The position numbers and the translations under genes are program-made. A stretch of DNA of 64,000 bases from Isurus oxyrinchus. Lineage: Eukaryota. Every line of letters starts with the position of its first letter. The first letter of the stretch is position 1. Shown piece after piece: positions 5,672 to 57,010 of the stretch. The notes beneath the pieces are model-generated. The model had not been told where the DNA came from, made no database searches, and saw only the letters and a program-made list of their open reading frames with translations. Where the stretch lies: contig JANJGN010000029.1 of the NCBI GenBank assembly GCA_026770705.1, positions 28,148,001 to 28,212,000 of the forward strand, in the 5' to 3' direction.

Positions 5672-7986
5672 ATAAGGAACACCTAGCATCGACCTAGGCA
5701 CCAGAAATGACAAGGCAAACGCAGCCCTGGTGACCCTGCAAAGTCCTCCAGTTCCAAGCTGTTCCAGTACAGCTACAACACTGGCTACAGCACTGGCTGT
5801 ATGTGGAAAATTGCTCAGGTGTTATGACCGAACAGTTGGTAAAGCTTAGTTATTTAAAAATTACAGAGGGAAACTTTAAACAACTGTCATAACCTATAAT
5901 TTTAAGTGTTGTGTTTGAGATGCGACTCTAAATTCAGGAATCAGACCACCAGTTCTCGAGAGATTTTATTTGAAACTAAATGAAACATTTTATTAAGTTA
6001 CATCACATTAAACACATCTACATGGCTACAAACTACTACTTTCATAACCTTTAACAAATTCCCAAACTAATCTTCATTAAGGCAACAGCAGCCCATAAAC
6101 TTAACCAAACACCAGGCGAAGCATTTTCACCTTATGAATTCAAAATGAGGTTATTTTTGCTTTAGTTCCTGTACAGACAGTGGTAGGCTCACAGCTGCTT
6201 TGATGTTACATTGCCTCTCCCATGTGTACACAGAACTGCTGAAGTTATACCTAGTACTGCTCATTGAATGTAAATTCTCATTGTATCACCAGCCTTTTTG
6301 AACTCCACCTATTAACAATAAAACCGCTTTCATGGTACCAATTTTATTAGTAATATAAACATATTGCTTGGTCTCTGATAGCTAGGTGGTAGTTTTCACT
6401 CCACTTCTTGAATGCTCTATTCAAAAAATACACGCTATCTCTCTTACATATCAAAACTGGTACACATCAAAGCACCTAGACTATCTGGCTTTAACCCAAT
6501 TAAGACACACCCATAGACTAAACCTCTATTTAAAGGAAAAATATTTTCCAATAATATTATATACATTAATAGCTTCATGACACTAGCTATATCCTGTACA
6601 CAAAAAGCAGGACAAATCCGACCCGGCTAATTACCGCCCCATCAGTCTACTCTCGATCATCATACAGTAATGGAAGTGGTCATCAACAATGCTATCAAAT
6701 GGCACTTGCTGAGCAATAACCTGCTCACTGATGCCCAGTTTGGGTTCCGCCAGGGCCACTCAGCTCCTGATCTCATTACAGCCTTGGTTCAAACATGTAC
6801 AAAAGAGCTGAACACCCGAGGTGAGGTGAGAGTGACTGCCCTTGACATCAAGGCCGCATTTGACTGAGTGTGGCATCAAGGAGCCCTAGCAAAATTGGAG
6901 TCAATGGGAATCAGGGGGAAAGCTCTCCACTGGTTGGAGTCATACCTAGCACAAGGGAAGGTGGTTGTAGTTGTTGGAGGTCAGTCATCTCAGCTCCAGG
7001 ACATTACTGTAGGAGTTCCTTAGGGCAGTGTCCTCTACCCAACCATCTTCAGCTGCTTCATCAATGACTTCCTACCATTATAAGGTCAAAAGTGGGGGAG
7101 TTCACTGATGAATGCACAACGTTCAGCATTGTAGGTGACTCCTCAGATACTGAAGCAGTCTATGTCCAAATGCAGCAAGACCTGGACAATATTCATGCTT
7201 GGGCTGATAAGTGGCAAGTAACATTTGTGCCACACAAGTGTCAGGCAATGACCATCACCAAGAAGAGAGAATTCAACCATTGCCCCTTGATGTTCAATGG
7301 CATTACCATCACTAAATCCCCCACTATCAACAGCCTGGGGGTTACCATTGACCAGAAACTGAACTGGACTTGCCATATAAATACTGTGGCTACAAGGACA
7401 GGTCAGTGGCTAGGAATCGTGCGACGAATAACTCTCCTCCTGACTCCCCAAAGCCTGTCCACCATCTACAAGGCACAAGTCAAGAGTGCGATGGAATACT
7501 CCCCACTTGCCTGGATGAGTGCAGCTCCCACAACACTCAAGAAGCTTGATACTGTCCAGGACACAGCAGCTCGCTTGATTGGTACCACATCCACAAACAT
7601 ACACTCCCTCCAACACCAACACACAGTAGCAGCAATGTGTACCATCACCAAGGCCCTTTAGGCAGCACCTTCCAAACTTACGACTACTACCATCTAGAAG
7701 GGCAAGGGCAGCAGACAGACAGGAACACCACCACCACCTGCAAGTTCCCCTTCAAGTCACTCACCATCCTGAGTTGGAAATATATCACTGTTCCTTCACT
7801 GTCACTGGGTCAAAATCCTGGAACTCCCTTCCTTACAGTTCTGTGGATGTATTTACACCACATGGACTTCAGCAGTTCCGGAAGGCAACTCACCACCACC
7901 TTCTCAAGAGCAACTAGGGTTGGTCAATAAATGCTGGCCTAGGCAGCGAAGACCAAATCCCGTGAATGAATGAATAAAAAAAAAAA
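5672..7986 (+). mobile_element. Internally deleted LINE (RT region to 3' tail), interrupted by a solo LTR
   Basis: NYRPISLLS, QFGFRQGHS, ALDIKAAFD, WADKWQVTF motifs; tail ending gaatgaataaaaa-polyA. Confidence 0.85.
5820..6582 (-). mobile_element. Solo LTR of the Gmr1-like family present at 57.0-60.6 kb
   Basis: TG...CA ends; colinear similarity with 59939-60641. Confidence 0.8.
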
Positions 7987-9116: not shown

Positions 9117-9280
9117 TCAAGGAGATGGTTTCCTGTTGTTGAGTTCAATTGGACAGACATCATAGCTTCCTTTCCTTTGGGCATATTGACAGTATGTTCT
9201 CAATATGATTGCTATGATGCCCAAGATGATTACAACGATTATGATTATTACGTACAATGCCAATCCAGTCTGTGTTTCAT
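9117..9280 (-). CDS. Exon 8: transmembrane helix and cytoplasmic tail
   Basis: gttttcacag|AT acceptor; [22 protein letters not shown] followed by [27 protein letters not shown]-stop. Confidence 0.88.
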
Positions 9281-12200: not shown

Positions 12201-15200
12201 CCCTCCATGTCAACTCATGCCAACCCATGACACCTATCCACCTCGTGCCCCCTTATAGCCCCCATGCTGATTCTTGCCCTTCACCCACCCTCAAGGCCCC
12301 TTAAAGCTCCCAACCGAACTCAATGCCAATTCATGCCTGTCACTCACTCCAATGGCTCCTCATACACATCATGCCAACCTATGGCCCTTCCATACCCATT
12401 AACCCATTTTACACTGCACAGAACTAGTGTAAAATGGGTTAAAGGACTCTTTAGTTGGCATATATGGAACGGCTCAGAACGGAAACATCCATTCACAAAA
12501 CTTCTTTAGGAAAAAACTGCTGTTCCTACAAACCTATAAAAGTGTCAATCAAAATAACTATTAAAGTATAAATAACAGAGGCTTCTTAATCTCATGCAAA
12601 TAAACATTGAGGCATTGACACAAAAGGACCACAGAAAGAACAATTTATTATAATCACTTAAAGATGTCAATCAAGTAAATTCAACAGTTCTCTTCAACCA
12701 TCCAAACAGAAGCCTGCTGAGAAAATCCTTTTATGAGACTGGGATCTCACCCAGCAGGCCTAAAGAGGGCAGGTTTAAGAACTCTTTAAGTAGATGTATA
12801 TGGCCTCATTAAGCCTGCTTGGCTGAGAGCACTGTCTAATTCTAAAATAATTAGAATATATTGGGTCACTGGGCATGGAAAGGCCAAAGGTTGGCCTACA
12901 CCACATGGACTACACCACATGGACAGCAGCCGTTCAAGAAGGGAACTCACCACCACCTTCTCAAGGACAACTAGGGATGGGCAATAAATGCTGACCTAGT
13001 CACTGACACCCACATCCTATGAATGAATATAAAATAACTTTCAGCAACATTTTCTCCACAGATTCTGATTGACCTGCTGGGTTTGCAGTAATTCCGGGTT
13101 TTATTTTTCACTGTGATTGCCCCTGCCTCCCCCCTCCTCACTATTAGAATTGAAGCCCAGCCAAGTGCTACAGCAGCTCACTGAGCTGCCATCACCTTGC
13201 ACCAATGTTACAAACTGACCTTTAACCCTGATGACCACTTCCTTCTCATCAATTCCATATTGATTGGTAGCTCGACATTTATAAATTCCTTGATGTTCTG
13301 ATGTTGCTTGGGAAATACGGATGACTCCAGAAGGACCAATCTCAATGTTGCTGCCATTACTGGGGTCTTCCCACTTTACTGTAGGTGTGGGTTTTCCACT
13401 GGAATTACAGGTTATTGTAACCTCATCTCCTTTACTGACATATACGGGAAACTCTGACACTGTTTTGTTATTTACTGATATAGTTGTGCCTCCTGGTTTA
13501 TCTGGAAAAGAGAAAATAAAGATGAAAATAGCCAGTTACACCCACAGAATCACTAACACATACACAACTCCACATCAATGCTTGGATTAGCTGGATGCCC
13601 AAACTTAGCCACATATTGTGCTCTCTTCCATCTTCCAAGAGCCATTTCAGAGCAGCTGAATCCTTTCAGTACTGCCACTGCCTGGACTTTACTCCCAGGC
13701 ACCTGTTATTTTGTACAATGAAATGCAGTGCCATTGTGTAAATATAAAGTCAACATAACAGCCACTGTATTTGATTGCTCAACGATATCACAGAGTGTTC
13801 ACTGCACCCAGAATAAAGGACGGTTCAAACATTAAATTTCCTGTAATCTGTTACTCACACAAAATGACTACATTTACATATGAGCTTTTGGATCCATACT
13901 CATTGGTGACTGTGCATTTGTACAGACCACCATGCTGCATTTGGACTGATGGGATGTGGAATATCTCTCCGCTGAATATCTTTTCATCTTTGGTCCAGAA
14001 CACTTGGGGAGTTGGGTTCCCTTCACCTTGACATGTTAAATTCTGCGATTTCCCTTTAATCCAATCTTCTTGACCTTTAAAGATCTGTGCTTTTAATGGA
14101 GCATTTGTAAAATTCATTACAACAAAAAATTAAATCATGAAATTAAACAACAGAAAGTTCAAGTATCCTTCAGATCTTTCTGGTTATTTGTTTGGTGCTC
14201 TCTGGATGTCAGTGCCCAGAATAAAACTGGCTTCTATTTTAAAACCCAGCGTCAGCATCAAAAAGCCCCAGGTCAAGTAAAACACAGGGTAAAGGCAGAG
14301 TAAGTTTCCCTGTACTTTGCAGAAAACAGCAAAGTTCTGAATAATTGATTCAGCGACACTCTGAGAATGAAGAAAACTAGTGACAGGTTTCATTTCTAAT
14401 CCTCTAAGAGGAGGTTTCCAGCTCACTAGTTAGATGGAACAGTTGAAGTAGTGTGCACGCGAGTGTGCCCTGTGATGGACTGCATCCCACCCTGGGTGTA
14501 CACCGCCTAGCATCCATTGCCTGTCAGGATAGGTTCCAACTCCCTGTGAACCTGAATTGGATGAAGCAGTTTTGGAAAGTGAGTGAGTGAGTGAAAGATC
14601 TGTCATGCAATGTTGGTGCCAGCTAAGTAGTTTGTTGCAGGGTGGCTGAGTTGTACTATTAATGATAGAGTTGATCTGCAGACACTTCTTGGGTGGAAAC
14701 TTTAAATTTATTTACAATATACTCAGCAGCAACTACACGTGTGCTTTCAACTCCAACTCTATCTCCACACTGACTGCTGATGTAGCCCGTGCTACTTTCC
14801 TATTGGTTACTACAGATCATGTGATCTTTCCTAACAAGTATTATTCTAAAAAATGCATTGCACACTAAACGAAACCATTGTTACTACATTTCTCTTCCTT
14901 TTACTGGGTTATACATATATTTACAAGTACATATTTTTCAAGATAACATAATATTTACACTGGGTAAGGAATTTACAATTTCAGTCTTTCAGGTGGTTTC
15001 CTGGAACGTCGCATCTCCAGAACTTCCGATTCTTTGTCAGGAACCTCCTTTTCCGGAGTTGCCTGAATATCAGGAGATTCAGTGGGAACCTGCAGTTCCG
15101 TATCCTCAACTCTTACAGGAACATCAGACATCCCAGTCCTCGGCTGAGTATCCTCAAGAGGAAACATAGGCCTGGTCATGATCACTTGTGGAACCAAATC

Positions 15201-24200: not shown

Positions 24201-27200
24201 AGGAGCAGGGGTATGGGACCAGTTGGATAGCTCTACCAAAGAGCCACATATGAACATATAAATTAGGAGCAGGAGTAGGCCATTCGGCCCCTCGAGCCCA
24301 CTCTACCATTCAATAACATCATTCCTGATCTGTTTGCGGTCTTAACTCCACATTCCACCTAGCCCATAACCTTTGGCACAACGGGATGGGCCGAATAGCC
24401 TCTTTCTATACTGTATCATTCTAAGCATCATAAAGGGAAGAGCATCATCAGTTACTGGAGAGGGGCTAGGTGTATGTTGTTTTCCTAGTTTCTTTGCTTC
24501 TATGTTTGATCTATTTTGCCATCACAATATCATTTCAGATAACATAGGATCATGGCTTCCCAGAGTGCTTCTCCACAAGTTTTGGACAATTACACCAGTC
24601 TGTCTGCAGCACTCATGAGCTGGATGTGAGCCTTCACTCTTCACAGCCGTGTACCATCACCTCCATTGAAAATGCTATTCTAGCATTCTCCGTCTCTCAT
24701 TAAATAGGTCCTATCGTTATCCCTCACTTTACAGCAGCCCATTGTGGCCCAGCTTCCACTTCCTCCTCAACTTTCCATGTGGAAGTGCCTGGTCTTCACT
24801 TAATATCTTTCTCACTGGTCTGGTCAGGATGCGCACCTTGCTACGTGGGGGACTGACGACACACACTCAGACGATCGCACTCTGTGACTCAATGCACTGC
24901 AGTTGTAACGGAGTGTCTCCACACAGCCTGTCCTGTAGCTTGTTCTCTTCAACTAAAAAGAGCCATTGGAAGGCAGACTATGTGTGAAGATCATACGAAC
25001 ATATGAACAAGGAGCTGGAATAGGCCACTCATCCTGTCAAGCCTGCTCCACCATTCAGTAAGATCATGGCTGATCTGATTGTAACCTCAATTCCACATTT
25101 CCACCTTTCACCTCCTTGTTTATCAAGAATCTTTCCACCTCTGCATTAAAAATATTCAAAGACTCTGCTTCCACTGCCTTTTGTAGAAGAGATTTCCAAA
25201 GACTCACCACCCTCTGAGAGAAAAAAAATTCTCCTTATCTCTGTCCTCAATAGGTGACACCTTATATTTAAACAGTGACCCCAGTTCTAGATTCTCCCAA
25301 ATGAAGAAACATCCTCACCACATCGAACCTGTCAAGACACCTCAGGATCTTATATGTTTCAACCAAGTCCCTTCTTACTCTCCTAAAGTCTAGTGGATAC
25401 ATGCCTAGCCTGTCCAATCTTTTCTCATAAGACAATCCACCCATTCCAGACATTAGTCTGGTAATCCTTCTCTGAACAGCTTCCACGAGACCAATTCAGT
25501 TTGTTTAGGATTAAGGGCAGAGTTGTTATGAGTCTTTTATTGATCTCCATTTAGGAAAAAACCTCACAAACCTTTTATGATCAAAATGGTGCTACTTACA
25601 CAGGACATGGAGAGTCTCAACCCGTTTTTTAACAACGGGACTTGTCATTGGCTGTAATTGAAGTTTCATTTCAGCCTCGCAGACGTACTGCTGTCCATCC
25701 AGCTGTGCTTGTGCATCTACAGTGTGATAGATAGTGAGCCCACTACTGCTTGATCCATTCACTAATGTGTCATTTCCGTTCTTCAGTCTGAGTTGAAGTT
25801 TGCCCGAGACATTAAACACACTGCAGGTAATATTAACTGGGTTTCCTTCAGGGCTGGTTGGTATTTGGATTTCAGGGGCAGAGAAAGCTGTAAAAATATC
25901 AGAAAGATATTATTAGAAACATTCCCAAAGTTTATCTTGCAGCCCCTCAGTGTCACTATAAAAATGAGGCAAAAGCAGGTACGTCGAATGCTTATTGCTC
26001 ACCATCCACCTCAATGATTATGAAGTGGATGTACAAGGCCCCATGGCATCTTTCCAAGTTTCCTCAGTATTCCTGATATCCTAGTCAGCCCTGACCGAAA
26101 ACATGCCAAAACAATTGAAATGTTTGTTCAGTTCATTTCTGTTGGGGAGCTTTTCAATCTGCATTTATTTAAAATTTTCTCAGTATTTAGGCAACACTGG
26201 CAGAGCCACATTTAATGCCCTAATTCTAATTGGCCAGGTTGGTTTTACAACAGTGGTTCACTTCAGAGGACATTTGCCTATTAAATGTTTATTACTGGTT
26301 AACTGGATGGCAGAAATAATTATTTGACTGTGAAGTAGTTTGGCATCTCCTCATAGTGTGAAAGGTATTGCATAAATGCAAATTCCTCCTTTCATTATGT
26401 CTGCTGATATTTTGTGTTTTCAAATTTTGATATTGCATTTGTTTATTATTGCAGAACACGTCCTGACTAATTTATTTATTGGTTAGTGCTCAGAAAAAGT
26501 CATTCTGGACACATGATCTGTTGTGTCATTAGTTGTTTCATCTTTGATTGACGTTACATGCCTATGCCATACAAATGCATTCAGCTACTCACTGTCTGAG
26601 GGTAGGTAGCAATGGTTCCTGCAATGTCTGTTTGCTCTCCGCAACCTTCTGCTTTCAGGCCAGTACCTTTCAAATTGTTGCAAAGCCTCACATCTTAAAG
26701 GGAATGTTGCTTGTGGAGGCCTGTTCTTCCTATCTAATACACACCTGAGTGCTGCGTATCATTGCACCTGCGCAGCTTAGGGAGAACATTTGTCGATAGG
26801 GAACTTTAATCACTTTCATTCAATTCTATCTGATAGGTGATTTGTTACTGGAATATATTAAAATAGCTGAGATATTATTCTATCCTTACCAAATAGACAC
26901 TCCTCATCTCTGAACACAACTCTTCTCTCTTGTTACATGATTATATTTTTGTTAAGATGAAACAGATCATTGTGTTTACAATCCAAACTACACTGTCAGT
27001 TGTTCCAATATTCTCTAATGATTCTGGAATACCGAGTGTCACCGACATTCCCTTATAATCAGGCAATACGAGTGTCACTAATACTTTATAACGCTACCTC
27101 TCTTTGATTACATAGGATTACATTGACTTATATGGCACAGCAACATTCCACCCAACTAGCCATTTTCTACAATCCACTCAAGCTAAGTATCTGAATATGT

Positions 27201-30200
27201 AAACATGTCAATAAACTTCCTAATTTGTCACCCAATGAGAGGAATTTTATTGCTTGAAGGGATGTAAATCTGATAAGCTGCGGTTTTGACTATAACAAAC
27301 TATCAGGATGCTATCTGATTGTAATGCCTCCAATAACCAGAAACCTTACCGTACACTTCAATGAAAATGCTATCATTCTTTGGTGGAACAGATGGATACT
27401 CCTCAAAATCCGCTGTACAGGTGACTTCCATCAGACCAGACACCTGTGGTATCCATGCTGTTGTTACCCGGATAGTATTGGAATTTGGCCTTGTTGGAAC
27501 TGAATTCAATTCTTCACCATCCTGAGACCATCTTACTCTCATCTTCTCAGCGGGATAGACATTTGTAACCTCACACGTTAACGTGACTTCTTGCTTCACT
27601 TCTAAGGGATTTTTGTCAAGGATTCTAGGCGGATCCATAAAAGCTGCAACACAGACAAGAAATTCACTTCATTTTGATTTGCTGTGTTGTTTTAGTTCCT
27701 AATGGACTGAATGGAAAACTGACCAGTACATCCCAATATACACATCCCAGGAATCTATCACACTTGCTCACTGTGAGAAAACTAGAGCCATCATCAGGAG
27801 GTCACATGCTTTATTTTTGAAATTAACCCTTGCTACTCTTCAGGCAGCCCAAGTATCTAACTTGCTACTTTTGCACCAGTTACTATGAGTGGTACAGGCT
27901 GATATACTCCCTGACTTAGCTTCACTGTGCTCTTTAATTGCATCTGTCTGCACTATCCCAGTTGAGACTTGGACTTCAGTGTGCGTGATTCTGGATATGA
28001 ATCTTTCAAGCTTGTTTTGCACTCCCTGCATCATGAGATGGGCTCACCTGCTCCATGACTATCACCTCTACTGGCCACAAGGATGTGCAAGGCAGCCAGG
28101 TTAATTTCCTTTAGAAATCCCTGTCATTATTAGGAAACCTGTGGCTGCCTTCTGACAAAAACAGGAGAGTGATAATAATATCAGCAAGTGGATTATTCTG
28201 GAGATAAACATACTTTGCACTAATTTTTTTGTTACAATCAAACAGAGGGAAAAGTTTTTTGAATCTAAAGCTCATTCCAGTCATGGCTTATCTCTCAGTG
28301 TCAAGTATCTTTGCATTGCCTGAAAGATTGTTCTGAATAAAGATGCAGTATTTAGTAATATTCTTACGCTAAAATAATTTTCTGTGTTTGGCTTGTATAT
28401 ACCAGTTAATAATTTATATACCCTCACAAGGCTGGCTTTTAACCTTCCTCTCTCTGTCTACACTGAAGAGCTTGTCTCTTGACACCAGAAAGATGACAAT
28501 TTGGAGTCAAGTTAATAAGATCTCAGGTTTGACTTGTAGTTACTGATGTTTAGAAGAATGAAACGTGATTGCATTTGAAGCATAAGATTCTGAGAAGGTT
28601 TGACATGGTAGATGCTGGGAGCTTTTTTCTGCTGGCTAGGGAGTCTGCAACTAGTGGCTATAGGCTTAGAAGGAATTTCTTCAGTTAGAGGGTTGTAAAT
28701 CTTTGGAATTTCCCATCCCAGATGGCTGTGGGTGCTCAGACTTTGAGTATATTCAATGCTACGATAGAGACTTTTGAGGCTGGATTTTTGCAGAGTTGGG
28801 AGGGCTATGCAGATCTTTGAAAATGGCAGGCGGGACCTGGATGTGGAAATCCCACCACTATTTCTGACAGATCTAACTTTTTCTGGCAAGCAAAGGGGGA
28901 TGGGGCGTGATTCAATCAGGAGGGAAATGCAAACTCAGCAGGGCCATTTGAACTGAGCACAGAATTCAAACAGACCCCATTTTGGCTGTTGCAAATAACT
29001 TAACCCAACTGTGGGAGTCATGAATTGATGGAGTAGACGTAACGACTATTGAATGTTGGATAACGTCTGTTTAAGTGTCAAGATCAAAAGTTTTTTAAAT
29101 GCCCCACCCTTTAAACATAAAAAAAGCACAGGCTGAAGTTGTCAGAGAGAGGTAAAAAAAGCCTTTGCTGGATTGCTTTGATTAACAGGCCATCTGATTT
29201 ACGTTAAAAAAATTAGCATTTGGTTACGCAGTTTCATATTTGTTTGACATTACCAAAGGGGCTATTAAAGGGTAGGGTATAGGGGATAGGCAGGAAATTG
29301 GCGTTGAGGCCACAGTCAGATCAGCCTTGATTTTATTGAATGGTGGACCAGGCTTGAGGGGTTGAATGGCCTACTGCTCCTAATTTGTATATTCATATGT
29401 TTGTATTATAAATGCTTGGCTGAATTTCAAATTCTACAATTGTCTCAGCAAGGCTTCTGAGTTTGCTGATTGATTGACACTTTAAAAGGGCTAGTAAAGA
29501 ATTGGCTGTGTTTGAAATGGGGTCTGAATAGATGCTTGTTTGTTTTTATAGAGATTTACACTTGAGGAAATTTTAAAGCTTTGAATGGATTTCATCAATG
29601 GGGGTTCTTTTCATATCAAGTGCATATAAGCGAAAGCTGTAATAGTTAGAAGCTCAATTTGTCCATCTCCACATTGGTTCTAGAGATTTGCCCATTGTGG
29701 ATACAGATTGAGTGGCTATGGAGGTAACATAGAGGGTATGGGGGTTGCATAGGGGGTTTGTTGGGAGCATGAGTGGCTATGGAGGGTATGAGAGGCAATG
29801 GGAGGGTGGGTGAGGTTGTCATGAACTGGCATTGAGGTGGCATGAAGGGTATTAGGGGCCATGCATTGGGTGGGGCATAGGTTGGCATGGAGGTGACATG
29901 GCAGGGTGGGTGGGGGGTGATGGGCATGAGGTGTGAGGGGTAGATCTTCTAAAATAATAGTCCTAGACAAAGTCCCAGAGAACTCAGCCTGCCTCAGCAC
30001 TTACCCACCCCTTGGCCGCCTCGCTTTGCTTCTGTGGTTGGCGGCCCTGAATCTATCCCACCTCTGACTGCACTCATTGGGCCACTTTAAACAGAGGTGG
30101 GTCCAGTAAGTCGGGAAATTTCCAGTCTCGAGCTAGCCACCTCAATATAAAAATCTGGCTTTTGGACTCTAGGAAAATCAAGGGATATGGGGGTTGGGCA

Positions 30201-33200
30201 GGAAGGTGGAGTTAAGGTCAAAGATCAGCCATGATCTTGTTGAATGGTCTTCCTGGTGACATGAGTTCAAACCCTACCACAGCAGCTGGTGGAATTTAAA
30301 TTCAATTAATAACATATGTAATTAAAAGCTAGTCTCAGTAATGGTGCCCATGAATCTTGTAAAAACCCACCTGGTCCACTAGTGTCCTTTAGGGAAGGAA
30401 ATCTGTTGTCCTTACCTGGTCTGGCCTAAATGTGATGCCAGACCTACAGCAATGTGATTGACTCTTAACTGCCCTCTGAAAAGGCTGAGCAAGTCACTCA
30501 GTTCAAGGGCAATTAGGGATGGGCAACAAATGCTGGCCTCGCCAGCGACACCCACACCCCATGCAAGAATAAACTTTTAAAAACAGGCTCGAGGGTTGTT
30601 TGGCTTACTCCTGCTCCCATTCTTTGTGTTCTTATGTTTTGCAAACTCTTCATTGACACTTTCAAACTAATTTTGCAAACTCCTTGGCTGACTAAAAGAT
30701 GTATAGATAATTGATAGTTACACATTGGACAATAAGAAAACTGCAATTTGCTGCTGAATCCAAGGTGAGAAATTTTTATCCAATAAATTTTTGTGCTCTG
30801 TACAAAACAGGAGCTAATGAGAAGTTTATTACTATACTGCTTCCTATTTATTCTCTACAAATTATAGTTATTTAACCCATTTTTAAAAAGAGTAGTGTTT
30901 CCTGCTCAGTTGGAACTTACAGTAAATATGCAGAGTCACAGAGGAGTTGGCGATTGGTTTTGTGGTGTTGGAGTCCAAGTCCACTTCTGCCAAGCAGGTG
31001 TACTCCTGTCCATCATCTGAGATACTTGCAGTGAAACTGAAGACGTTCCTCAATCTTTTATCTTCATCTGGGAAACCTGTTTCTTCTGTGAAATTACTCT
31101 GAACAACCTCTCCCCCTCTCAGCCATGTGAGTATGAGTTTATTGTTTGGATAGACCCTCGGACCAGTGCACTCCAGACTATATGTTCTGTTAACTTCCAG
31201 CACTTCAGGAAGTGGAGTAATGCTTATCTCTCGATCTGTTAAAAGACATTAACAGGAATCATCAAAACAATATACATTGGAAACCTCTTGTTCCACTCCT
31301 CTTTTCCCTCAACACATGTATTTTTCATAAAGAGTTGTAAATAGCCTATGCGTACAATAAAGGTTATCACAATCAAAAATGTGCTTGTGTTCCAACACGC
31401 CCTATTAAAGTTCTGCTTCAGTAATTCTCTTCAGTTTGCACTAAGCCATGAGCAATGACCTGGGCCTTGATTTTAAAAAGCACTAAAATTAGCATATTTG
31501 ACAAAAAATGAAACTATCACAGAATAGAATCATAGGATGGAATTTCCCATTCTGAAGTATAAGTTGGGGGGTGGGAGTGGAAATTAGAATGATTTCCATT
31601 CGGGGGTGGGACAGCAGGTCCTTAGAGATCCCTGCGCTGGTCACCTCAAGAGGCACGAGAAGTTCAGTGAATCTTGGGCTGTGTGGGCAGAAAGTCGTAG
31701 TCCCTGCTCTTGCCTCAAGGGGTTGAAGGTACTGGTGGCATATTGAAAGGGCACCTGGACAGCCATTTGCTCACTGCAAGCCAGGAGCATCAGTCTGGCT
31801 GTTGTTCCAGAGGCAGAGACCTACTGCAGAATATAGAATGTCGCAGACCAGACAATGTGTGGCCCCACTGTTTCGCGATGCCTCTCTGTGGGATCTCCTT
31901 CCAAATAAGGCGGGAGGTCCTGTCTCCAGGAGAAGGCAGTTGGAGCTCTCCCTTTCATGTGGTGGCTTGGCTGGAAGTCGTAGTGAATGTTAGTGCCCCT
32001 GTGGGCCCCAAAAGAACCAGCGCAGCAGTGCAGGCAAAGGGTGAATGGTATACGCTGCTCCGCCAGGGTAAGTGGAACCGTCTACTCACTGCAAAGTGAC
32101 ACTCAGAAGGGCATCAGGCAGTGTAAGTGTGAGTGCACAGAGATGTCAGACAGGAGTTTGGGTTGCAGGACTCAGCAGAAGATGGGGCATGTGCACGGAA
32201 TATGTGCCAGCCACTTCATTCTCTCAATGTTCTCTCAGTTGCAGGACATCATGCTTGTTAATCACTTACTAGGAAGGGCTCAGGAGCTCCTAACCTGCTC
32301 ATGTACCCATTGGGATGACACTCAATTCTTCCGTTTGTCTGCAGGCCAAAAACGCCCACAATAAGAGGGAGCGGACTGAGGCCAGTGATGGCATTCTGGA
32401 CATCAGAGTGCTCAGCACCTTTGAAGAGGAGGCCACCAAACTAGCCGGGGAGGACAGGGCCGGGCCTGCACCGATGGCAAAACAGGAGTCCTCCAGCAAG
32501 CCAATGGTAATGCCTCGAGTCTGCAGTCGTGCTGACAGAGTGAGACATTATTTTAATAAGGGAGCGTCCATTCAGTGATAGATTTACAGTTTCTGGGGTC
32601 CTGTGCTGGGCGGGCGCGCTAAGCAGCGGGACGCGCGCCCATTGTTAATTATAGGCCTTGTTAAGGGCCTTAACTTGCCAATCGTCGCCGATTTTGAGGG
32701 GCCCGTGTGAACTCTGGCTCACGGCTCGGGCCCAACGGGCAGGCGGGTAGGTGATTTCTTTACAAACCTCATCCAGTGGGAGGATGAGGTTTGATATCGG
32801 GTTCAAAGTTTAATATGGTTTTTGTTTATTTCATTAACATGTCCCAACCCGTGTGACACTTTCACATGAGGGGAGCATGTTAATGAATTTTTTATTGTTC
32901 TATTTTTTATATTTGCCAGCCTTTCAGCGATCTCCCTGAGACAGCACTTTGCCTCAGGGAGGTGTGCGCTCTTTTGCGCGCATGTGTGAGAGAACTCACT
33001 CTGACAGATGGGGAATCCCTCCCCTGCACATGGAGCGCATACGCTTCCCATTGGGCGGCCTGCTGGGGGGGCCTTAATTGACCCGCCCACTTAAAATGGC
33101 AGCGTGGCCCGTTTCAGCGGCGGCGATCGGCTCCCCGCCCACCGCCGAGCCGGTGGGGTCCGCCCGCCCTTCAAGGGCAAAGTTCTGCCCATGAAGTGGG

Positions 33201-39200: not shown

Positions 39201-42200
39201 CGTCCCCATCATCCTACACAATTAACACTTATCATTTCTCTCCTCCTGTAACCTTACAACCTCCCTCCTGTTACCCTGGACCCTATTGCTTGCTATGTGG
39301 ACATTCCTGCTCTCCCAGCTGGCCTCAAGAACAGAAGGGGTCAGTCTCAGGAGGGCATGGGCACATCAACAGTTATGGGCTGGGGAGAGTTTTATTGTTA
39401 GTCAGAGATACTTTCCACAGTCTAAAATGTTTCACACTTCCTTTCACCCTACTTTATATTTTCCATTCGCAAATAGAAGAGGAGTTTTCACTTACTGTAT
39501 ACCGTGACCACCTCTTTCTTCTCCTTCAGCTGTTTACTCTCTGATGTACAGGTCACAGTGCATGGTGCTGCAAAATCCCATTCCTGGACACTCAGAAAAT
39601 AGTCTGTGGACCAATTTCTGCTCTTTGTTGTGTTAGGTTTTACCCCTGGTTTATATTCCACACTGAGCACTGGTTCTGTACATGTCGTACTGCAGTTCAC
39701 CAGTAAAGAGCCTCCAAATTCAACAGCTGGGGGGCTTATGTTGATCGAAACTTCAAATCCAGTTACAACTGCTGCGAAGGAAACAAATCACAGTAAATCC
39801 AGGAATATTAAATCTATTCAAAGTAGCACTTATTGAGAGTAACTCCCTGAGGTAATAACACATATTCTAACAACACCAATAAGCAGGCCACTTTTGAAAA
39901 CAAAATTTCTGCAGGATTTATAGAACCATAGAAATTTACAGCACAGGAGGCCAATCAGCTCATCATGCCTGTGCTGGTTAAAAAAAGAGCTATCCAGCTT
40001 AATCCCACTTTCCAGCTCTTGCTGGGTAGACCTGTTGGCATTATCAATTCAAATGCATATCCAAGTAGTTTTGAAATGTGATGAGGGTTTCTGCCTCTAC
40101 CACCCTTTCAGGCAATGAGTTCCATATCCCCACCAGGTGAAAAAACTCCTCCATAACACTCCTTGAATCCTTCTACACATCACTTTAAATCTATGCCGCT
40201 GGTTATTGACCTCTCTGCTATGAGAAGTAGGTCCTTCCTAAACACTCTATCCAGGCCCCTCATAATTTTATACACCTCAATTAAATCTCTTAATCAATTA
40301 AATATCTTAAATCTTCGGCTCCAAAGAAAACAATCCCAGCCTACCCAACCTTTCCTCGTAAAATTAAAATAAAGTTAAAATTCTCCCATCCTGACAACTT
40401 CCTTGTAAATCTTCTCATATCCTCTCTAGAGTGATCACATGCATTTTGAAATGTAGTGGTCAGAACTGTAAGCAGTATTCTAGCTGTATCCTAGACAGCG
40501 TTTTATCCAGTTGTAGCATAATCTCCCTGCTCTTAATGCTTTGGCTAATAAAGGAAAGTATTCTTTATGTCTTCTTAATCACCTTATCTACTTGTACTGC
40601 TACCTTCAAGGCCCCGTGGACATGCATGACAAGGTCTCTCTGTTCTTCTATATAATAAGTGTAAAATCCTGCAGATGCTGGAAATCTGAAATAAAAACAG
40701 AAAATGCTGGAAAAACTCAGCAGGTCTGGAAGCATCTGTGGGGAGAGAAACAGGGTTAATGTTTCAAGTCTGTTTGACTTCTTCAGGGCTAAGAAGAGTC
40801 ATACAGACTTGAAACGTTAACCCTGTTTCTCTCTCCACAGATGCTGCCAGACCTGCTGAGTTTTCCCAGCATTTTCTGTTTTTATTTCAGATTTCCAGCA
40901 TCTGCAAGATTTTGCCTTCATAATCGAGATTAGGTTAACTGGCCATTTAGTTGCCCTAACCCCATCTTTTGCTATTACTTCAGCAATGAGATATATCAGC
41001 ATTTCCATACAGCACCCATTAAGATGTAAACATTTCTCACCACAATTATTGGCCTCACTTGTTCACACATCAATTATTTTCAATCAAAATCAGCTTAATA
41101 ATGACAATAATGCTCTCAAAGGGGTGGGTCTTACTTGACCATATGTGCTGATTATTTTTTGGAGGAGATAACAGCCAGAAGTAATGAAAGAAACCATTGA
41201 CATAGAATAGGGGAAATTTTCTCAATGGGCACCCACTATCCAATAAAAACACTGCACCTTAGATGTGCTGCATGTAGGAAGGGATGTTGCTTTTATTTCG
41301 TCTTTAACCATTTGAAATAACTCATAGTAATTTCAGGCCGAGAACTGCCCTCTAATTCAGTGTTGGGCAGGAAATCCCAAAGCATCTGTGGGCCTCAGCC
41401 TTGGAAAGCTGCAGCCAGAAAGCTTTGGGTCCTTTCAATTGTCCAACTGCAGCTGTGCAGGGCCTTGATGAGACCACACCTGGGGTATTGAGTGCAGTTT
41501 TGGCCCCCTTACCTAAGAAGGGATATACTGGCCATAGAGGGAGTGCAGCAAAGGTTCATCAGACTGATTCCTGGGTTGGCAGGATTGTTGTATGAGGAGA
41601 TTGGGCCGACTAGGCCTGTATTCACTGGAGTTTAGAAGAATGAAAGGAGATCTCATTGAAATGTATAAAATTCAGTCAGGATGCAGGGATGATATGTCCT
41701 TTGGCTGGGGGGGGGGGTCTAGAACAAGGGGCTACAGTCTCAGGATATGGGATAGACCATTCAGGATTGAGATGAGGAGAAACCTCTTCACTCAGAGGGT
41801 GGTGAACCTGTGGAATTCTCTACCACAGCAGGCTGTGGAGGCAAGTCACTGAATATATTTAAGAAGAAAATAGATTTCTGGACTTTAAAGGCGTCAAAGG
41901 GTATGAGGAGAGCGTGGGAGCATGGCGTTGAGATGGGGGATCAGCCATGATAATATTGAATGGTGGAGCAGGCTTGAAGGTCCGAATGACCTACTCAGCT
42001 CCTATTTTCTATGTTTCTATGTCCTGTGGTGGAAAAATTGAAATACAAAGCTGCTTGGATTAACTTTCACCTGTCCTTGAGACCCCTGCAGAACTCCTGT
42101 CCATCCAGTTCATCCTGTCCATGGCCATTACGCCAACTTTGATCAAACACCCCAAAACTGGGGAACTCAGCACATGTAGAAATAAGAGAAAGAATCTAGA

Positions 42201-45200
42201 GGCTAGGCATATTCTCTTTTGCATTATTGAAAGAGGAAGACTGGGATCCAAGCCTTGCTATAGCCATAGGCCCAGTTGAGCCCAGTGAAGAAACTCAGGA
42301 AATCTCAGTACAATGGGAGCAGACTTGATGGGGAAAAAAATCTGCACCTTTTCCACATTCGTTGGTCTGGAGAATGTGAGCCTTCCAGATGTAGGGAAGA
42401 GGAAACCAACCCCCACTCCCACCTCAGTGTACCTGGTCTTGAAATAAGGTGCAATCTACGGCATATAAGCAGCCCCCCCCACCTCTCTGGACTTTAGGAG
42501 TTTGTACCTTAGAACCACTAGAACACGTGGAAAAAAAATGCAGGTATAGCCACCTGGGAAACATAGTCATAGGAAAAAGTAGGGTGTCTTGTGTGCCTTT
42601 GATATTTTATTGCAGCAGAACAGAATGTGTGCTTATGTTGTAGTTTCTTCTTTATAGAGGTTACTGTCTATTAATGTCACAGGAAATTTGACGATTGTGA
42701 AATGGAAAAAGGGTGTTCTTTTTTGTAAATGATGGCCTATCTACAGATAACTGTTTTACATCCAGGCAGCAAGTTAAAAACATACCCTAATGTAGGATAC
42801 AGTGTACAACTTCCTTTCGTTTCCCTAGTACATAAAACAGTGAACATGGTAGAAGATGACAGTGAAACAGACTGAAGTACAAGGATCAGAAGGCAAATTA
42901 ATGTTAGATATTCACCAACTAACGTAGGATTGGTTTCAGGTACATTCATGAATGCACAAATTTCGACTACCTGCCTTTTTTTTCTTTTCTACCTTCCACA
43001 CCATTAGTTAGATATAAATATAAAACAGCCAAATTTCGATAACAAAAACAGAAATTGCAGGTCTGACGATATCTGTAGAGAGAGAAACTGAGTTGACGTT
43101 TCAAGTCTGTATGACTCTTCTTCGGAGCTAAACAGAAGTAGAAATGTGATAGAATTTATACTGGTTAAGGTGGTGGGTGGAGCAGGTAAAGAAGGATAGA
43201 AGGTCAGCAATACGTGGGGGCTAAGGAGAGATTGACAATGATGTCATGGACGCAAGACAAAGGGAGTGTTAATAGTTGTGGTGAAAACAAAAGAAGGTGT
43301 TGATAGTGGCATAAAGGTGAGAAAGCAAAAGGTGTTAATAGCAGAACAAGGGTCAGTACTCTGTGAAAGAACAACATAGAACAAGTGACAGATTATCCTG
43401 AGGGGGGAGGGGCAATGGTTAGAGAAAAAGGATAAAAAAGGTGATTTAAAAAATGAATAAAACTAAAAAATAGGTAAATAAAAATAAAATAAAATCTCAC
43501 AATGGGACCAACATCCATGCGGGGAGGCTTGCTACTGCTGTCGGGGAGGGTTTAAACTAATTTGGCAGGGGGATGGTATCATGAGAGGAGGTTCAGCAGG
43601 GGGAGATGCACAGCCAAAATTAGAAGAGAGAGCAAGTGAGTCTGGAAGGCAGAGAAATTATAGGCCAGTTAAGACACAAGTGAGTCTGGAAGGTTGGATG
43701 GTATTTATTTTAATACAAGGAGTCTGATGAATAAGGCAGGTGAGTTGAGGGCACAAATTAACACAAAGAAGTATGATGTCATTGCTCTCACAGAGACATG
43801 GTTGAGAGAGGAGCTCAATATTCCAGGATATAGGGTCTTCAGGTGAGAGAGGAAAGTTGGTGGGGGTATCACAATATTGATCAAGGAATCAATTACAGCA
43901 GTAAGGAGGGATGACATTTTAGAAGGCTCCTCAAATGAAGCCATATGAGTAGAACTAAAAAACAAAAAAGGAGCAGTCACTTTGCTGGGAGTGTACTGTA
44001 GGCCCCCAAAGAGTCAGAGAAATAGAAGAGCAGATATGTAGGCAAATTTCAGAGAAATGTAAAAATAATAGGTTAGTAATAGTGGGGGAATTTCAACTTC
44101 CCCAACATTAACTTTGTTTTCATAGTGTGATAGTTTTAGAGGGAGCGGAATTCTTAAAATGCATCCGGGGAGCTTTTAAAGCCAGTACATAGAAGGTCCT
44201 ACAAGAGAGGGGGCGGTTCTGGACTTAAATTTAGGGAATGAAGCCAGGCAAGTGGTAGAGGTGTCAGTGGGAGCATTTTTCAGGTAATGATCATAACTCC
44301 GTTAGATTCAAAGATGTTATGGAAAAGGACAAGGATGGGCCAGAAATCAGAGTTCTAAATTGGGAGAAGGCCGATTTTAATAAGATCAGATTTGATTTGG
44401 CCAGAGTGGACTGGGAGCAGCTACTTTTAGGTAAATCTGTGTCAGAGCAGCAGGACTCATTCAAGAAGGAAATAGGGAGAGTACGGGGCCAACATATCCC
44501 AGTAAAGACAAAGGGTGGAACCAACAAATCCAGGGAAACCCTGGATGTTGAGGGATATACAGGATTGGGTAAAGAGAAAAAGGGAGGCTTATGACAGATA
44601 CTGAGGGCTCAAAACAGCGGAGGCCCTAGAGGAGTATAGAATGTGTAGGGGGGAACTTAAAAAGGAAATTAGGAGAGCAAAAAGGGGGCATGAAAAACCA
44701 TTGGCAGGTAAAATAAAGGAAAATCCAAAGTTATTTTACAAGTACATTAAGAGTAAGAGGATAACTAGGGAAAGAGTAGGGCCCATTACGGCCCATTAAG
44801 TGGTAATTTGTGTGTGGAGCCAGAAGATATAGGTAGGGTTCTAAATGAATACTTTGTGTCAGTGTTCACAAATGAGAGGGATGACATGGGTATGGAAATC
44901 AGGCAGAAGGACTGTGATATAATTAAAGAAATTTGCATAGAAAGGGAGGAGGTTCTAAGTGGTCTGGCAGGCTTAAAAGTAAAATGAAATGTATCCCAGG
45001 CTGTTGAGTGAGGCAAAGGGGGAGATAGCAGGGGCGCTGGCAATAATTTTCAATACTTCTCTGGCCACAGGAGAGATGCCAGAGGACTGGAGGACAGCCA
45101 ATGTGGTACCGTTATTCAAGAAGGGAGGAAGGGATAAACCAGGGAACTACAGGCCAGTCAGTCTAACCTCAGTGGTGGGGAAACTATTGGAAGCAGTTCT

Positions 45201-46986
45201 GAGGGACACAATTAATCTACACTTGGAGAGGCAGGGATTAATCAAGGACAGTCAGCATGGTTTTGTTAAGGGGAGGTCATGTCTGACCAATTTGGCTGAA
45301 TTTTTGGAAGAGGTGACCAGGTGTGTAGATGAGGGCAATGCATTTGACATAGTCTGCTTGGACTTCAGCAAGGCTTTTGATAAGGTCCCACATGGGAGAC
45401 TGATAATGAAGGTAAGAGCACATGGGATCCAAGGCAATTTGGCAAATTGGATCCAGAATTGGCTGAATGGCAGGAAGAGGGTGATGGTCAAGGGGTGTTT
45501 TTGTGACTGGATGCCTGTGTCCAGTGGGGTTCCACAAGGATGGTGTTGGGTCCCTTGCTGTTTGTTACATATATAAACGATTTAGACTTGAATGTAGGAG
45601 GGTTGTTCAGTAAGTTCACAGATGACACGAAAATTGGCGGTGTGGTAAATAGTGAGGAGGATAGCCTTAGATTACAGGAGGATATAGACGGGCTGGTCAG
45701 ATGGGCTGATCAGTGGCAAATGGAATTTAATCCAGATAAGTGTGAGGTGATGCACTTGGGCAGGACAAACAGGACACAGGAATACATGATGAATGGTAGG
45801 ACCCTAGAAAATACTAAGGATCAGAGGGACCTTGGTGTGCATGTCCAAAGGTCTCTTAAGGTAGCAGAACAGGTAGATAAGGTGGTTAAGAAGGCATATG
45901 GGATACTTGCCTTTATTAGCCGAGGCATAGAATATAACAACAGGGAGGTTATGCTGGAACTGTATAAAACACTAGTTAGGCCACAACCACAGTATTGAGT
46001 GCAGTTCTGGAATCCGCATTATAGGAAGGATATGATTGCACTAGAGAGAGTGCAGAGGAGATTTACCAGGATGTTGCCTGTGCTGGAGTGGTTTAGTTAT
46101 GAGGAGAGATTGGATAGACTGGGGTTATTTTCCCTGGAGCAGAGGAGATTGAGGGGGGACATGATTGAGGTGTATAAAATTATGAAGGGCATAGATAGGG
46201 TAGACAAGAAGAAACTTTTCCTCTTGGTGGAGGGATCAACAACTAGGGGGCATAGATTTAAAGTAAGGGAGGTTTAGAGGGGATGTGAGGAAGAATTTTT
46301 TCACCCTGAGGGTGGTGGGAATCTGGAACTCACTGCCTGAAAGGGTGGTAGAGGCAGAAACCCTCATAACATTTAAGAGGTATTTGGATGTGCACTTGCG
46401 ATGCCATGCATGGCATACAAGGTTATGGGCCTAGTGCTGGAAAATGGGATTAGAATAGTTAGATACTTGTTTGACCGGTGCAGACTCAATGGGCTGAAGG
46501 GCCTTTTTCTGTGCTGTAGACCTCTATGACTCTATGACAAAAAAAATTTTAAAAAGGGATTAAAAATAGGGTGAAGATAGAGGAGAGAGTTCACGGTCAG
46601 AAGTTGTTGAACTCAGTGTTAAGTCAGAAGGCTGTAAAGTGCGTAATTGGAAGATGAGGTGCTGTTCCTCCAGTTTGTGTTGGAACATTACAGCAGGCCA
46701 GGGACAAATGTGGGCATGAGAGCAAGCTGTAAATAGCCAAATTTCTATTTCCTACTGAGAAACTGAAACCATCCAGTATGATGGGAAACCAGTAATGATC
46801 GATTGCAGAATAAAACTATCAGATATGATTGGAACTGCAACGCTGTGAATGCCATTTAATATTATTTGAGTCTATGAAAATAATTCAAATTTACTTATAA
46901 TTAATAGCTCTTTACCTACCTGTTCCAAAGGAAAGTAACGTGAAAAGCCAAATACATTCAACCGGTGAAATTTGTCGAAAATCCAT
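9117..46986 (-). CDS. ICAM/VCAM-family Ig-superfamily adhesion molecule (signal peptide + 6 Ig domains + TM + short tail), 8 coding exons, 643 aa predicted
   Basis: Exons 46986-46920, 39771-39496, 31235-30921, 27643-27350, 25887-25600, 14104-13859, 13501-13220 and 9280-9117 sum to 1932 nt (644 codons with stop) and join in frame through phase-1 introns. All donors are GT; all acceptors are AG except exon 6 (AA). Orthology to a specific ICAM cannot be assigned without phylogeny. Confidence 0.88.
9780..11890. mobile_element. Two L2-type LINE 3' fragments in opposite orientation
   Basis: Plus piece 9780-10330 ([14 protein letters not shown]-like region); minus piece 10345-11890 split by an LTR. 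Confidence 0.6.
10377..11231. mobile_element. Probable solo LTR inserted in an L2 3' end
   Basis: tgttatga...tgaca ends interrupt the contiguous L2 terminal motif gtatttatacagcac|cctttgacatgataaaac. Confidence 0.5.
13220..13501 (-). CDS. Exon 7: Ig domain 6
   Basis: YKP...[20 protein letters not shown]...[14 protein letters not shown]; ttttccag|AT acceptor, G|GTCAGT donor; 282 nt. Confidence 0.92.
13859..14104 (-). CDS. Exon 6: Ig domain 5 (predicted acceptor is non-canonical AA)
   Basis: YAP...[20 protein letters not shown]...[15 protein letters not shown]; donor T|GTGAGT; expected acceptor reads ttttacAA|AT; 246 nt. Confidence 0.8.
14460..14595 (+). mobile_element. V-SINE/L2-type 3' tail fragment
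   Basis: gtgtgccctgtgatggactg...gggtgtac...ggatagg...ggatgaagcagt...(gtga)n terminal repeat. Confidence 0.5.
14633..19840 (-). mobile_element. Full-length degraded Ty3/Gypsy LTR retrotransposon in intron 5
   Basis: 256-bp LTRs 14633-14888 and 19585-19840; flanks tagtt/cagtt; PBS-like TGGTGATAAGGAT (compare tRNA-Ser PBS TGGCGACGAGGAT); PPT at 14889-14902; gag knuckle CYYCHRNGY, protease [10 protein letters not shown], RNase H (LTCDAC), integrase (TAPYHPSSN). Confidence 0.92.
17187..17768 (-). mobile_element. 5'-truncated Penelope-like element (GIY-YIG C-terminus, 3' UTR, pLTR with hammerhead motif at 17286-17324)
   Basis: [22 protein letters not shown]-stop; TSD gtccctaa (17179-17186, 17769-17776). 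Confidence 0.85.
19860..22495. mobile_element. Degraded PIF/Harbinger element with HARBI1-like transposase remnant (+, about 21390-21960)
   Basis: [15 protein letters not shown] and YNESH...EQTIGLLK motifs; interrupted by a LINE at 20650-21390. Confidence 0.65.
20645..21390 (-). mobile_element. LINE 3' portion, same family as 5672-7986
   Basis: [21 protein letters not shown] and the shared tail. Confidence 0.8.
22955..24430 (+). mobile_element. Degraded CR1 fragments
   Basis: VIMGDFN endonuclease motif, TRGHRFK motif, CR1 3' tails. Confidence 0.65.
24990..25486 (-). mobile_element. CR1 3' end
   Basis: [27 protein letters not shown]. Confidence 0.8.
25600..25887 (-). CDS. Exon 5: Ig domain 4
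   Basis: FSAPEIQIP...[11 protein letters not shown]...[12 protein letters not shown]...TLHVL; ttttacag|CT acceptor, T|GTAAGT donor; 288 nt. Confidence 0.9.
27350..27643 (-). CDS. Exon 4: Ig domain 3
   Basis: [24 protein letters not shown]...EVTCTADF; gttgcag|CT acceptor, G|GTAAGG donor; 294 nt. Confidence 0.92.
30255..30580 (+). mobile_element. tRNA-headed SINE (partial head)
   Basis: B-box-like gagttcaaaccc, conserved body and LINE-type tail. Confidence 0.75.
30921..31235 (-). CDS. Exon 3: Ig domain 2
   Basis: [23 protein letters not shown]...[14 protein letters not shown], resembling ICAM/VCAM D2; ttttaacag|AT acceptor, T|GTAAGT donor; 315 nt. Confidence 0.92.
35535..35790 (-). mobile_element. 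Penelope pLTR/3' UTR fragment with hammerhead-like motif (35589-35627, core CUGUUGA)
   Basis: Homologous to 61950-62262 in reverse orientation. Confidence 0.75.
37920..38335 (+). mobile_element. CR1 3' end
   Basis: ggagtttagaaga...gatcagccatgatc...actcctgctcctaattcgtat. Confidence 0.8.
39496..39771 (-). CDS. Exon 2: Ig domain 1, ICAM N-terminal type
   Basis: [25 protein letters not shown]...W...W...CTVTC...VTVY; two CxxxC pairs as in ICAM/VCAM/MAdCAM D1; acceptor ccttcgcag|CA, donor A|GTAAGT; 276 nt. Confidence 0.9.
39920..40630 (-). mobile_element. CR1 3' fragment
   Basis: (atagaa)n tail and reverse-complement CR1 ORF2 end. Confidence 0.65.
40661..40915. mobile_element. Older Penelope pLTR inverted pair (imperfect palindrome, about 120-bp arms)
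   Basis: The same peptide [22 protein letters not shown] appears on both strands in the ORF track; hammerhead remnants lie at the centre. Confidence 0.8.
41455..42020 (+). mobile_element. CR1 3' end
   Basis: [17 protein letters not shown]...[10 protein letters not shown]. Confidence 0.8.
43038..46734 (-). mobile_element. Penelope-like element split by a CR1 insertion
   Basis: TSD agccaaatttc (43027-43037, 46735-46745); pLTR with hammerhead motif at 43091-43129; GIY-YIG C-terminus at about 46590-46725. Confidence 0.78.
43496..46537 (+). mobile_element. CR1 LINE with nearly complete but disrupted ORF2 (APE + RT)
   Basis: [13 protein letters not shown]...[45 protein letters not shown]; (ctctatga)n tail. 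Confidence 0.93.
46920..46986 (-). CDS. Exon 1: signal peptide [22 protein letters not shown]
   Basis: ATG at 46986-46984, hydrophobic core [10 protein letters not shown], phase-1 donor G|GTAGGT; promoter motifs lie just upstream; not in the ORF track (too short). Confidence 0.8.
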
Positions 46987-56023: not shown

Positions 56024-57010
56024 TGGGCAGAATTTTGAGTTTGGCGGGTGGGCATGGTGGATGGGCCCAGGAGTGGCCGGGAAACAGGTCACCGCCCGCG
56101 ATCAGCCCCTGATCGCGATTTCCTGTTGGTGGGCCAATTAAGGCCTGACCGGGGTGAAAGGCCAAGCAGACCAATAACGACCCAGTGGCTGGTTTAAAAA
56201 TGGCCCAGGCAGCCTCTGGAAGGCTAAGGCTGCCATGGAAGAACATCTGCTCTGCGTTAGCAAAGTGATGGAGTCGAGTATGGCTGGAGACAGCAGGCAG
56301 GAGGGCAGATCGGGTGGGCATTCAGCAGCCCCCCCCACCCCGCTTTTTGGATGAGTGCCTTGCGGTCCTCCTGGAGGAGGTGGTTGCCAGGAGGGACACC
56401 CTTGTCCCCAGGGATGGAAGGAGGAGGCCACCATATCTCACAAACAGCATGGGAGGAAGTGGCAGCACTGATTAGCAGCCATGAAGTGGTGCGGCGCACA
56501 TGGGTGCAGTGCCGGAAGAGGTTCAATGACCTGCTGTGCTCAGGAAGGGTGAGTACCGTGTTGGAATGGATCAGTGTGGTGAAATGTTAAGGTCTGGCCA
56601 TCCTCCAGTGGACCTCAGGGGTGTTAGAGTCTGAGTGCCAACTGTCAGTGATGCTGGAGCTGGCCAAGGGGGTGTGCCCTGGCTGCTTAAAATGAGTGCC
56701 TTGTGGCTCGAGGGCCACGACTCGGATGTACCCTGCGAGGTGTTCCTCAGCTGGGATTGGCCAGGCTACAATGGTGCTGCAGGTAGAGAGTGGACTTATC
56801 AATGCTCCTCTGTCCTTTCAGGAGAAGATGAGCCATAACCAGGCAGAGAGGTCATGTACAGGCGGAGGCCCCCCCCAACCTGCCGCTGCTCACCAGGTTC
56901 AAGCAGGATGCCCTTGAGCTGGAGGGTCGGCAGGCTCCACATGCAACCGGGCGTGGAGAGGCGGGGGTGCCAGATGAAAATAAGAGTGCAGTGCACAGAG
57001 GTGAGAGTTT
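56024..57010 (+). mobile_element. Harbinger left end with Myb/SANT-like ORF
   Basis: TIR gggcagaatttt; AWEEVAALISSHEVVRRTWVQCRKRFNDL. Confidence 0.75.

Follow-up and report, generated by a model that had tools for sequence, protein, structure and literature searches.

A tandem cluster of ICAM-family genes in the shark Isurus oxyrinchus, with an invariant glutamate in the first domain and a likely history of exon-limited gene conversion

The window analysed here, a stretch of 64,000 nucleotides of the Isurus oxyrinchus genome (contig JANJGN010000029.1, hereafter C29, 28.148-28.212 Mb), contains on its minus strand a gene with the layout of a type I membrane protein, in which every Ig domain is encoded by one phase-1 exon and the frames of all eight exons are open. 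A signal-peptide exon, whose coding part (46920..46986) comprises the ATG and a GT donor, was located by its tblastn match to the N-termini of shark homologs. The D1 exon (39496..39771) has 276 nt, phase 1 and AG/GT ends and encodes an ICAM_N domain with Cys26/30/70/74 and four sequons; the D1 domain of the original prediction coincides exactly with this single, canonically bounded exon. On the plus strand, and in frame 1, translation of the same coordinates runs into stops. The ICAM-type D2 exon (30921..31235) shares 92.6-96.6 % identity with each of the six D2 exons of its paralogs in the cluster described below. D3 (27350..27643) is recognised by the Pfam profile PF21146 (ICAM1_3_5_D2; 32.3 bits, cut-off 27.5) and is one base off the paralog G5 within the exon, and D4 (25600..25887) is identical to D4 of G5. 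An I-set D5 exon body with an open frame (13859..14104) is non-canonical at its acceptor, which reads AA (14105..14106) where G5 has AG. D6 (13220..13501), also of the I-set, has canonical AG/GT ends, and the last exon (9117..9280) encodes a transmembrane segment and a short cytoplasmic tail with the stop codon. For this tail exon blastn gave no paralog within the 464 kb examined; it is 96 % identical to the tail of the Carcharodon model P0019. The introns and flanks contain, as judged by eye, fragmented gag/protease/RT/integrase-like frames, probably remains of LTR retrotransposons, at 14973-19499 (D4-D5 intron) and 56799-59609 (upstream), as well as LINE RT fragments at 3708-4577, 7068-7661 and 44983-46277.

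The gene is one of a series. Seven intact D1 exons and a broken one lie at C29 27.955-28.251 Mb, within the 464 kb examined, and the seven tandem ICAM genes have 2 to 6 Ig exons each; the cluster may extend below 27.948 Mb, the edge of the examined stretch. The broken D1 exon (G3; C29:28213990-28214260) is of type A (see below), carries a frameshift and a stop, and is situated about 19 kb upstream of the signal exon of the window gene. In G1 an in-frame stop in the transmembrane exon (C29:28243348-28243476) cuts the tail off at five residues; the copy in G2 reads through at this point, and G1 is either a tail-less ICAM or a decaying copy. The paralog G6 (C29:28037263-28052065) lacks D3-D5 and has three D6-type exons in tandem. 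In several database models from sharks, rays, loach and turtles (P0001-P0006, P0018-P0022, P0055-P0060) one chain comprises two to five ICAM_N domains; such models may be annotation fusions of tandem genes or real multivalent ICAMs.

Six Ig domains had been predicted for the window gene. Six Ig-like exon bodies together with the signal and transmembrane exons are present, but a six-domain product is put in doubt by the AA at the D5 acceptor. A contig of 851 nt from a DNA run, possibly the source of the assembly itself, covers this site with 0 differences. Two bypasses of the lost acceptor keep the frame. Skipping of D5 would give a product of five Ig domains and about 561 aa; use of the next AG (14090-14091) would trim D5 by five residues and give six Ig domains and about 638 aa. 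Judged from the sequence, the window copy would most likely be spliced in one of these two ways, and a substitution at 14093 appears to remove an intervening AG that would have made a stop. The six-domain layout is one among many architectures in the 48 homolog models, six of which have exactly D1-D6 and five of which lack only D5. Since the full D5 is found in P0019, which has the same tail, the loss of the acceptor looks recent.

Transcript data come from three probable RNA runs, which represent at most two samples and one of which is flagged as 'probably DNA'. Contigs from these three runs splice D4 to D5 at 14104 and differ from the window copy by 3 letters. The exon of G5 also differs from it by 3, and the single displayed position, 14004, carries the letter of G5, so that these contigs probably derive from G5, or else from an AG allele of the window gene. 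A spliced contig matching the window copy was absent among the pieces listed from those runs. The piece covering the transmembrane exon has a depth of 2.7, similar to intronic pieces, and unbroken contigs of 1149, 1064 and 891 nt pass straight through D4-D5. Together with the lost acceptor and the signs of turnover nearby (the broken D1 of G3, the premature stop in the G1 tail exon), these data speak for a reading in which the family assignment given below holds while the window copy itself is in decay or hardly expressed, the work being done by G5, G6 and G8, its paralogs. This reading is rather improbable: all eight frames are open, both bypasses are in frame, the D1-D2-D3-D4-D6 layout recurs in the five D5-less models, assembled contigs drop rare variants, and the D4-D5 contigs could represent the AG allele in other individuals. 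The domain count and the expression of the window copy are uncertain.

The family membership of the gene is nearly certain. ICAM_N (PF03921) is the sole Pfam match of the D1 exon (38 bits, cut-off 21), and its four cysteines C26, C30, C70 and C74, arranged in two C-x3-C motifs, are invariant in all seven paralogous D1s. With a profile built from these seven D1s, all 13 top matches in the PDB are ICAMs, and the glutamate is aligned. An AF2 model of D1 from a 53-row alignment reached a pLDDT of 90 and superseded an earlier one from 22 rows (pLDDT 67), with which fold searches had already placed ICAMs at the top. In Foldseek, ranks 1-9 for the D1 model are ICAMs. By VIA the model superimposes on ICAM-5 with Z 11.6 (rmsd 2.0, 84 aligned) and on VCAM-1 with Z 11.1 (rmsd 2.2, 83 aligned), values so close that the fold alone does not decide between ICAM and VCAM-1. 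A HMMER search with D1 among 1.84 billion representatives gave 56 matches; ten of them were looked up by name, and rays, skate, chimaera, coelacanth, loach and turtles are among these. Protein identities to Carcharodon models amount to 84-99 %, which points to a lamniform shark. The four D1 sequons (N10, N25, N46, N52), previously taken as a resemblance to ICAM-2/3, are present in the window copy, but they are no family trait, as four occur in just 3 of 63 D1s; in the complex model described below none of them belongs to the predicted integrin interface.

The residue on which the integrin assignment turns is Glu38 (codon 39656..39658, minus strand; numbering from 39769), which is predicted to bind the MIDAS. 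The register claimed for it earlier is not self-evident, because a single-sequence phmmer search yields a gapless alignment that sets it opposite Ile33 of ICAM-1, one residue short of Glu34. The profile of the seven paralogous D1s opens a one-residue gap and brings it onto E34 of ICAM-1 and E37 of ICAM-2/-3/-5 (MIDAS-ligand residue numbers after the available part of PMC4237329). In the AF2 model the glutamate is exposed at the end of strand C, which comprises residues 33-36. It is conserved throughout: when the 65 domains of 48 shark and ray proteins were collapsed to unique sequences, all 52 distinct elasmobranch D1s had it, as did 51 of 53 rows when the alignment was widened to chimaera, coelacanth and more remote matches.

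An orthologue of VCAM1, or an ancestral intermediate between ICAM and VCAM, would be an alternative: D2 and D3 both contain a VYP motif, many homologs bear the name VCAM1-like and the fold score is level with that of VCAM-1. The motif had been regarded as VCAM-like, but V-x-P is also found in ICAM-2, in bony-fish-type ICAM relatives and in many distant ICAM_N proteins. The Asp motif of the VCAM1 and MAdCAM-1 type is absent after strand C of the D1 of the window gene. VCAM-1 is missing among the PDB matches of D1 up to E 10 with the single sequence and up to E 1 with the profile, and MAdCAM-1 is likewise missing from the PDB hits of both searches. The best solved matches of D2 are ICAM-5 (E 3.9e-6) and ICAM-2 (1.1e-5), followed by VCAM-1 (1.6e-3); D3 finds mostly Ig constant domains in the PDB.

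C29 also carries profile matches to DNMT1-RFD (26.83 Mb), CDC37_N (27.31 Mb) and a JAK FERM domain (27.39 Mb), the last belonging to a gene which, by position only, we take to be TYK2. They lie on the same contig 0.6-1.1 Mb from the near end of the ICAM cluster. The ICAMs of human 19p13.2 are situated between DNMT1 and TYK2 with CDC37 nearby; the shark cluster shares this linkage, in a gene order that departs from the human one. A genome search for MRPL4 (PF00573) gave one match, on contig C2. A different gene, on contig C16 (112.546-112.555 Mb), has a D1 that matches VCAM-1 at E 1.8e-18, with an Asp aligned to Asp40. It adjoins, on the opposite strand, an EXT-family gene presumed to be EXTL2, the neighbour expected of VCAM1, so that this position is occupied by the C16 gene and not by the window gene. 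The 11 Ig exons of the shark VCAM1 (C16:112545609-112555100) are D1, D2 and D3, a tandem of seven I-set exons that are nearly identical and follow a repeat of about 1-1.5 kb, and one more. A single Asp-bearing D1-type exon was seen among them, and the fourth cysteine that human VCAM-1 has is missing from the shark D1. A separate VCAM1 beside EXTL2 refutes the VCAM1 reading, which retains hardly any probability. With D2 nearer to ICAMs and V-x-P occurring in ICAMs as well, the notion of mosaic ICAM/VCAM features fails too. The window gene is a mosaic of ICAM paralogs, not of ICAM and VCAM.

Possible partners of D1 are encoded in the same genome. The exon best matching integrin beta-2 scores 132 bits for it as compared to 112 for beta-7, and an I-domain exon has alpha-M as its best single-domain match, the top row, collagen VI, being the sum of ten weak stretches. 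This alphaM/X-like exon is 98 % identical to an alphaM-like protein of Carcharodon. The CD11 gene to which it belongs (C3675:18574-20620) is located on an unplaced, repeat-rich contig of 42 kb, and for three of four other sharks the homologous models are short or incomplete, a possible reason why shark CD11 genes were missed. Searches of the genome with the profiles PF21520 and PF00357 gave no match and tails only, respectively. VWA matches on contigs C2 and C12 were rejected as I domains on account of their collagen-like appearance, and for a further one on C36 no I-domain motif is listed. Very large arrays of single-exon VWA domains at C14:36.2-38.6 Mb and C3:208.7-209.8 Mb are probably collagen VI-like genes.

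The modelling of D1 with an alpha-I domain that had been proposed was carried out with the I domain of Carcharodon P0107 as a stand-in, with Mg and without alignments. The complex scored 0.75 as compared to 0.20 for the best control, with 100 % contact agreement across runs and a partner pLDDT of at least 88; the score mark applied is reached by 51 of 78 solved and 2 of 108 mismatched pairs (among eukaryotes 39/65 and 2/126). In the model Glu38 contacts residues 168-170 and 232-235 of the I domain, including the MIDAS residues Ser168, Ser170 and Thr235. Like complexes are solved (1mq8, 1t0p, 3bn3), so that the pass may reflect memory, and as the partner is a stand-in the model speaks for likeness rather than for binding. 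Taken together, Pfam, fold, invariance of the glutamate, synteny, partner genes and complex model back the predicted role as an ICAM-family protein and likely ligand of a beta2 integrin, which D1 would bind through Glu38. Positioned at the end of strand C, this residue would complete the Mg site of the alpha-I domain and would thereby support leukocyte adhesion.

The glutamate may instead serve another alpha-I integrin, e.g. alphaE-beta7 or one with a collagen-type I domain, or the cluster may have been shaped mainly by pathogen or lectin binding. The model is silent on which family member binds, alphaE was the sole leukocyte alpha subunit found in elephant shark in a 2014 survey (PMC4237329, available part), and human ICAMs are described as receptors of pathogens and DC-SIGN in the accessible text of PMC10886500. 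Against this, ITGB2 and a CD11-type I domain occur in the genome, and myeloid clusters of the nurse shark express Icam3 with Cd11b and Cd11c (PMC10529500, available part), so that this reading is unlikely. A review lists both alphaE and alphaL for cartilaginous fish (PMC8359198, as far as accessible).

Between D1 lineages dS amounts to 0.72-1.03, whereas D2 has a dS of 0.014-0.117 over all 21 paralog pairs. In 8 of 11 pairs tested the D2 identity of 92-97 % spans 339-381 nt, i.e. the exon plus about 20-50 nt; the other three are the two pairs of recent duplicates and G4/G5. With five of the paralogs, the D2 identity of the window gene reaches about 20 nt into the introns; with G5 the introns show some weaker homology. 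Such confinement of identity to the exon points to exon-limited gene conversion. The window gene is itself a patchwork. The 98 % identity of its D1 to that of G7 extends over 319 nt only, and the 96.6 % identity of its D2 to that of G1 over 351 nt only. From D3 to D6 it is 93-98.6 % identical to G5 with introns included, and the tail exon is its own.

The same pattern is found across species. In trees of 63 D1-D2 pairs, calculated without mammalian rows, D1 groups by lineage across species and D2 by species or order. The pairs were taken from genomic adjacency in Isurus and from gene models in other species, where wrong D1-D2 joins are possible, and the type labels were defined from D1 motifs. 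D1 type A, which includes the sawshark Pristiophorus, has a support of 99/95 and type B of 95/86; type C is a catch-all remainder and not one clade. D2 needs 13 label changes on these trees and D1 needs 2. Mean identity within a species between different types (54 pairs) is 48 % for D1 and 93 % for D2, and between orders within the same type (431 pairs) 61 % and 80 %, respectively. In AU tests, for which 24 of the 63 rows were used, a type-A clade is rejected for D2 (p 4.5e-50), and so is a clade of lamniforms for D1 (p 2.5e-55), the latter group having been named after the first tree was seen. The dN/dS ratios gave no usable sign of positive selection (D1 0.28-0.90; D2 with too few synonymous changes). 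Type A D1s lack three residues after the glutamate, at positions which lie in the predicted interface. Conversion between paralogs would keep D2 uniform, and the old D1 lineages, of which there are at least two, A (without these three residues) and B, would survive alongside the main class.

The D2 exons could also be alike through strong purifying selection or through recent duplication of whole genes, and G1/G2 and G7/G8 are indeed recent segmental duplicates with intron identity, while G4/G5 share D3-D6 including the introns. Yet the synonymous sites are homogenised too over the 21 pairs, D2 is more alike within a species across D1 types (93 %) than between orders within a type (80 %), and the likeness breaks off about 20-50 nt beyond the exon, with D1 dS reaching 1.0. 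For the Isurus genome this explanation is largely refuted, and we consider it quite improbable. The preferred reading, to which we assign a probability of roughly 0.7, is that of a tandem cluster of seven ICAM genes whose D1 likely binds CD11/CD18 (beta2) integrins via Glu38 and whose exons have likely been reshuffled by exon-limited conversion.

In comparison to mammalian ICAM-1/-2/-3/-5 (PDB 1iam, 1zxq, 1t0p, 4oi9; alphaL complexes 1mq8, 1t0p, 3bn3) the shark gene likewise has an ICAM_N D1 with four cysteines and a Glu ending strand C, an ICAM-type D2, the type I membrane layout and linkage to DNMT1/CDC37/JAK. It differs in sequence (about 25-33 % identity), in being one residue shorter before the Glu and having a YKPG-type loop after it, and in belonging to a set of seven paralogs, whose Ig exons number 2 to 6. 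Elasmobranch ICAM-like models (Carcharodon P0007, P0019, P0046; Heterodontus P0015, P0009) have the same domains, 54-99 % identity and the same Glu, and include both six-domain (6/48) and D5-less five-domain forms (5/48); P0019 shares the tail of the window copy but has a full D5, for which the window copy lacks the acceptor. VCAM-1 has the I-set D1 fold and V-x-P in D2 in common with the window gene and differs in the Asp of its CD loop and in having its own gene on C16 beside EXTL2. Another tandem family of adhesion genes, the clustered protocadherins, is known for domain-specific gene conversion, with one ectodomain homogenised and the rest diverse (PMC3966226, available part). Unlike in protocadherins, the converted unit of the shark ICAMs is a separate, intron-bounded exon, every gene has a signal exon and a tail exon of its own, and the diversity kept is that of a heterophilic, predicted integrin-binding domain.

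A wider and more tentative proposal, which we hold to be rather less probable than not, is a modular ICAM repertoire in sharks. D1 lineages that predate the split of the shark orders would surround the invariant Glu with differing surfaces and select different CD11/CD18 or other alpha-I integrins, and conversion exon by exon would exchange D1/D2 cassettes between genes that differ in stalk and tail. Read-through splicing along a cluster in which all exons are of phase 1 may then yield multivalent ICAMs with several D1s, as in several database models.

Shark ICAM-like genes as such are already known, being annotated publicly and named in print. Their database names are inconsistent (ICAM1/2/4/5-like, VCAM1-like, hemicentin-2-like, Siglec-16), in line with the vague annotation that had been expected, and a homogenised D2 beside retained D1 lineages explains this misnaming. 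As far as the sources are accessible, ICAM-1 is described in teleosts (PMC8417878), ICAM1 is dated to bony fish (PMC7916592), and a 2026 survey considers ICAMs to be amniote-specific, with other jawed vertebrates possibly using alternative molecules (PMC13262535). In a literature search outside which most subscription journals lay, neither a study of the shark ICAM locus nor one of gene conversion in ICAM clusters was found. The single window gene is ordinary; what merits the attention of specialists is the exon-limited conversion beside old D1 lineages. Since a shark has, besides ITGB2 and a CD11 subunit, a syntenic ICAM cluster whose Glu is invariant and a VCAM1 at a locus of its own, both adhesion axes date back to the ancestor of jawed vertebrates. 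The homogenisation of D2 with retention of D1 is echoed by human ICAM-1 and ICAM-3, for which the available part of PMC10886500 gives 38 % identity in D1 and 77 % in D2, and suggests that ICAM clusters evolve recurrently in this mode.
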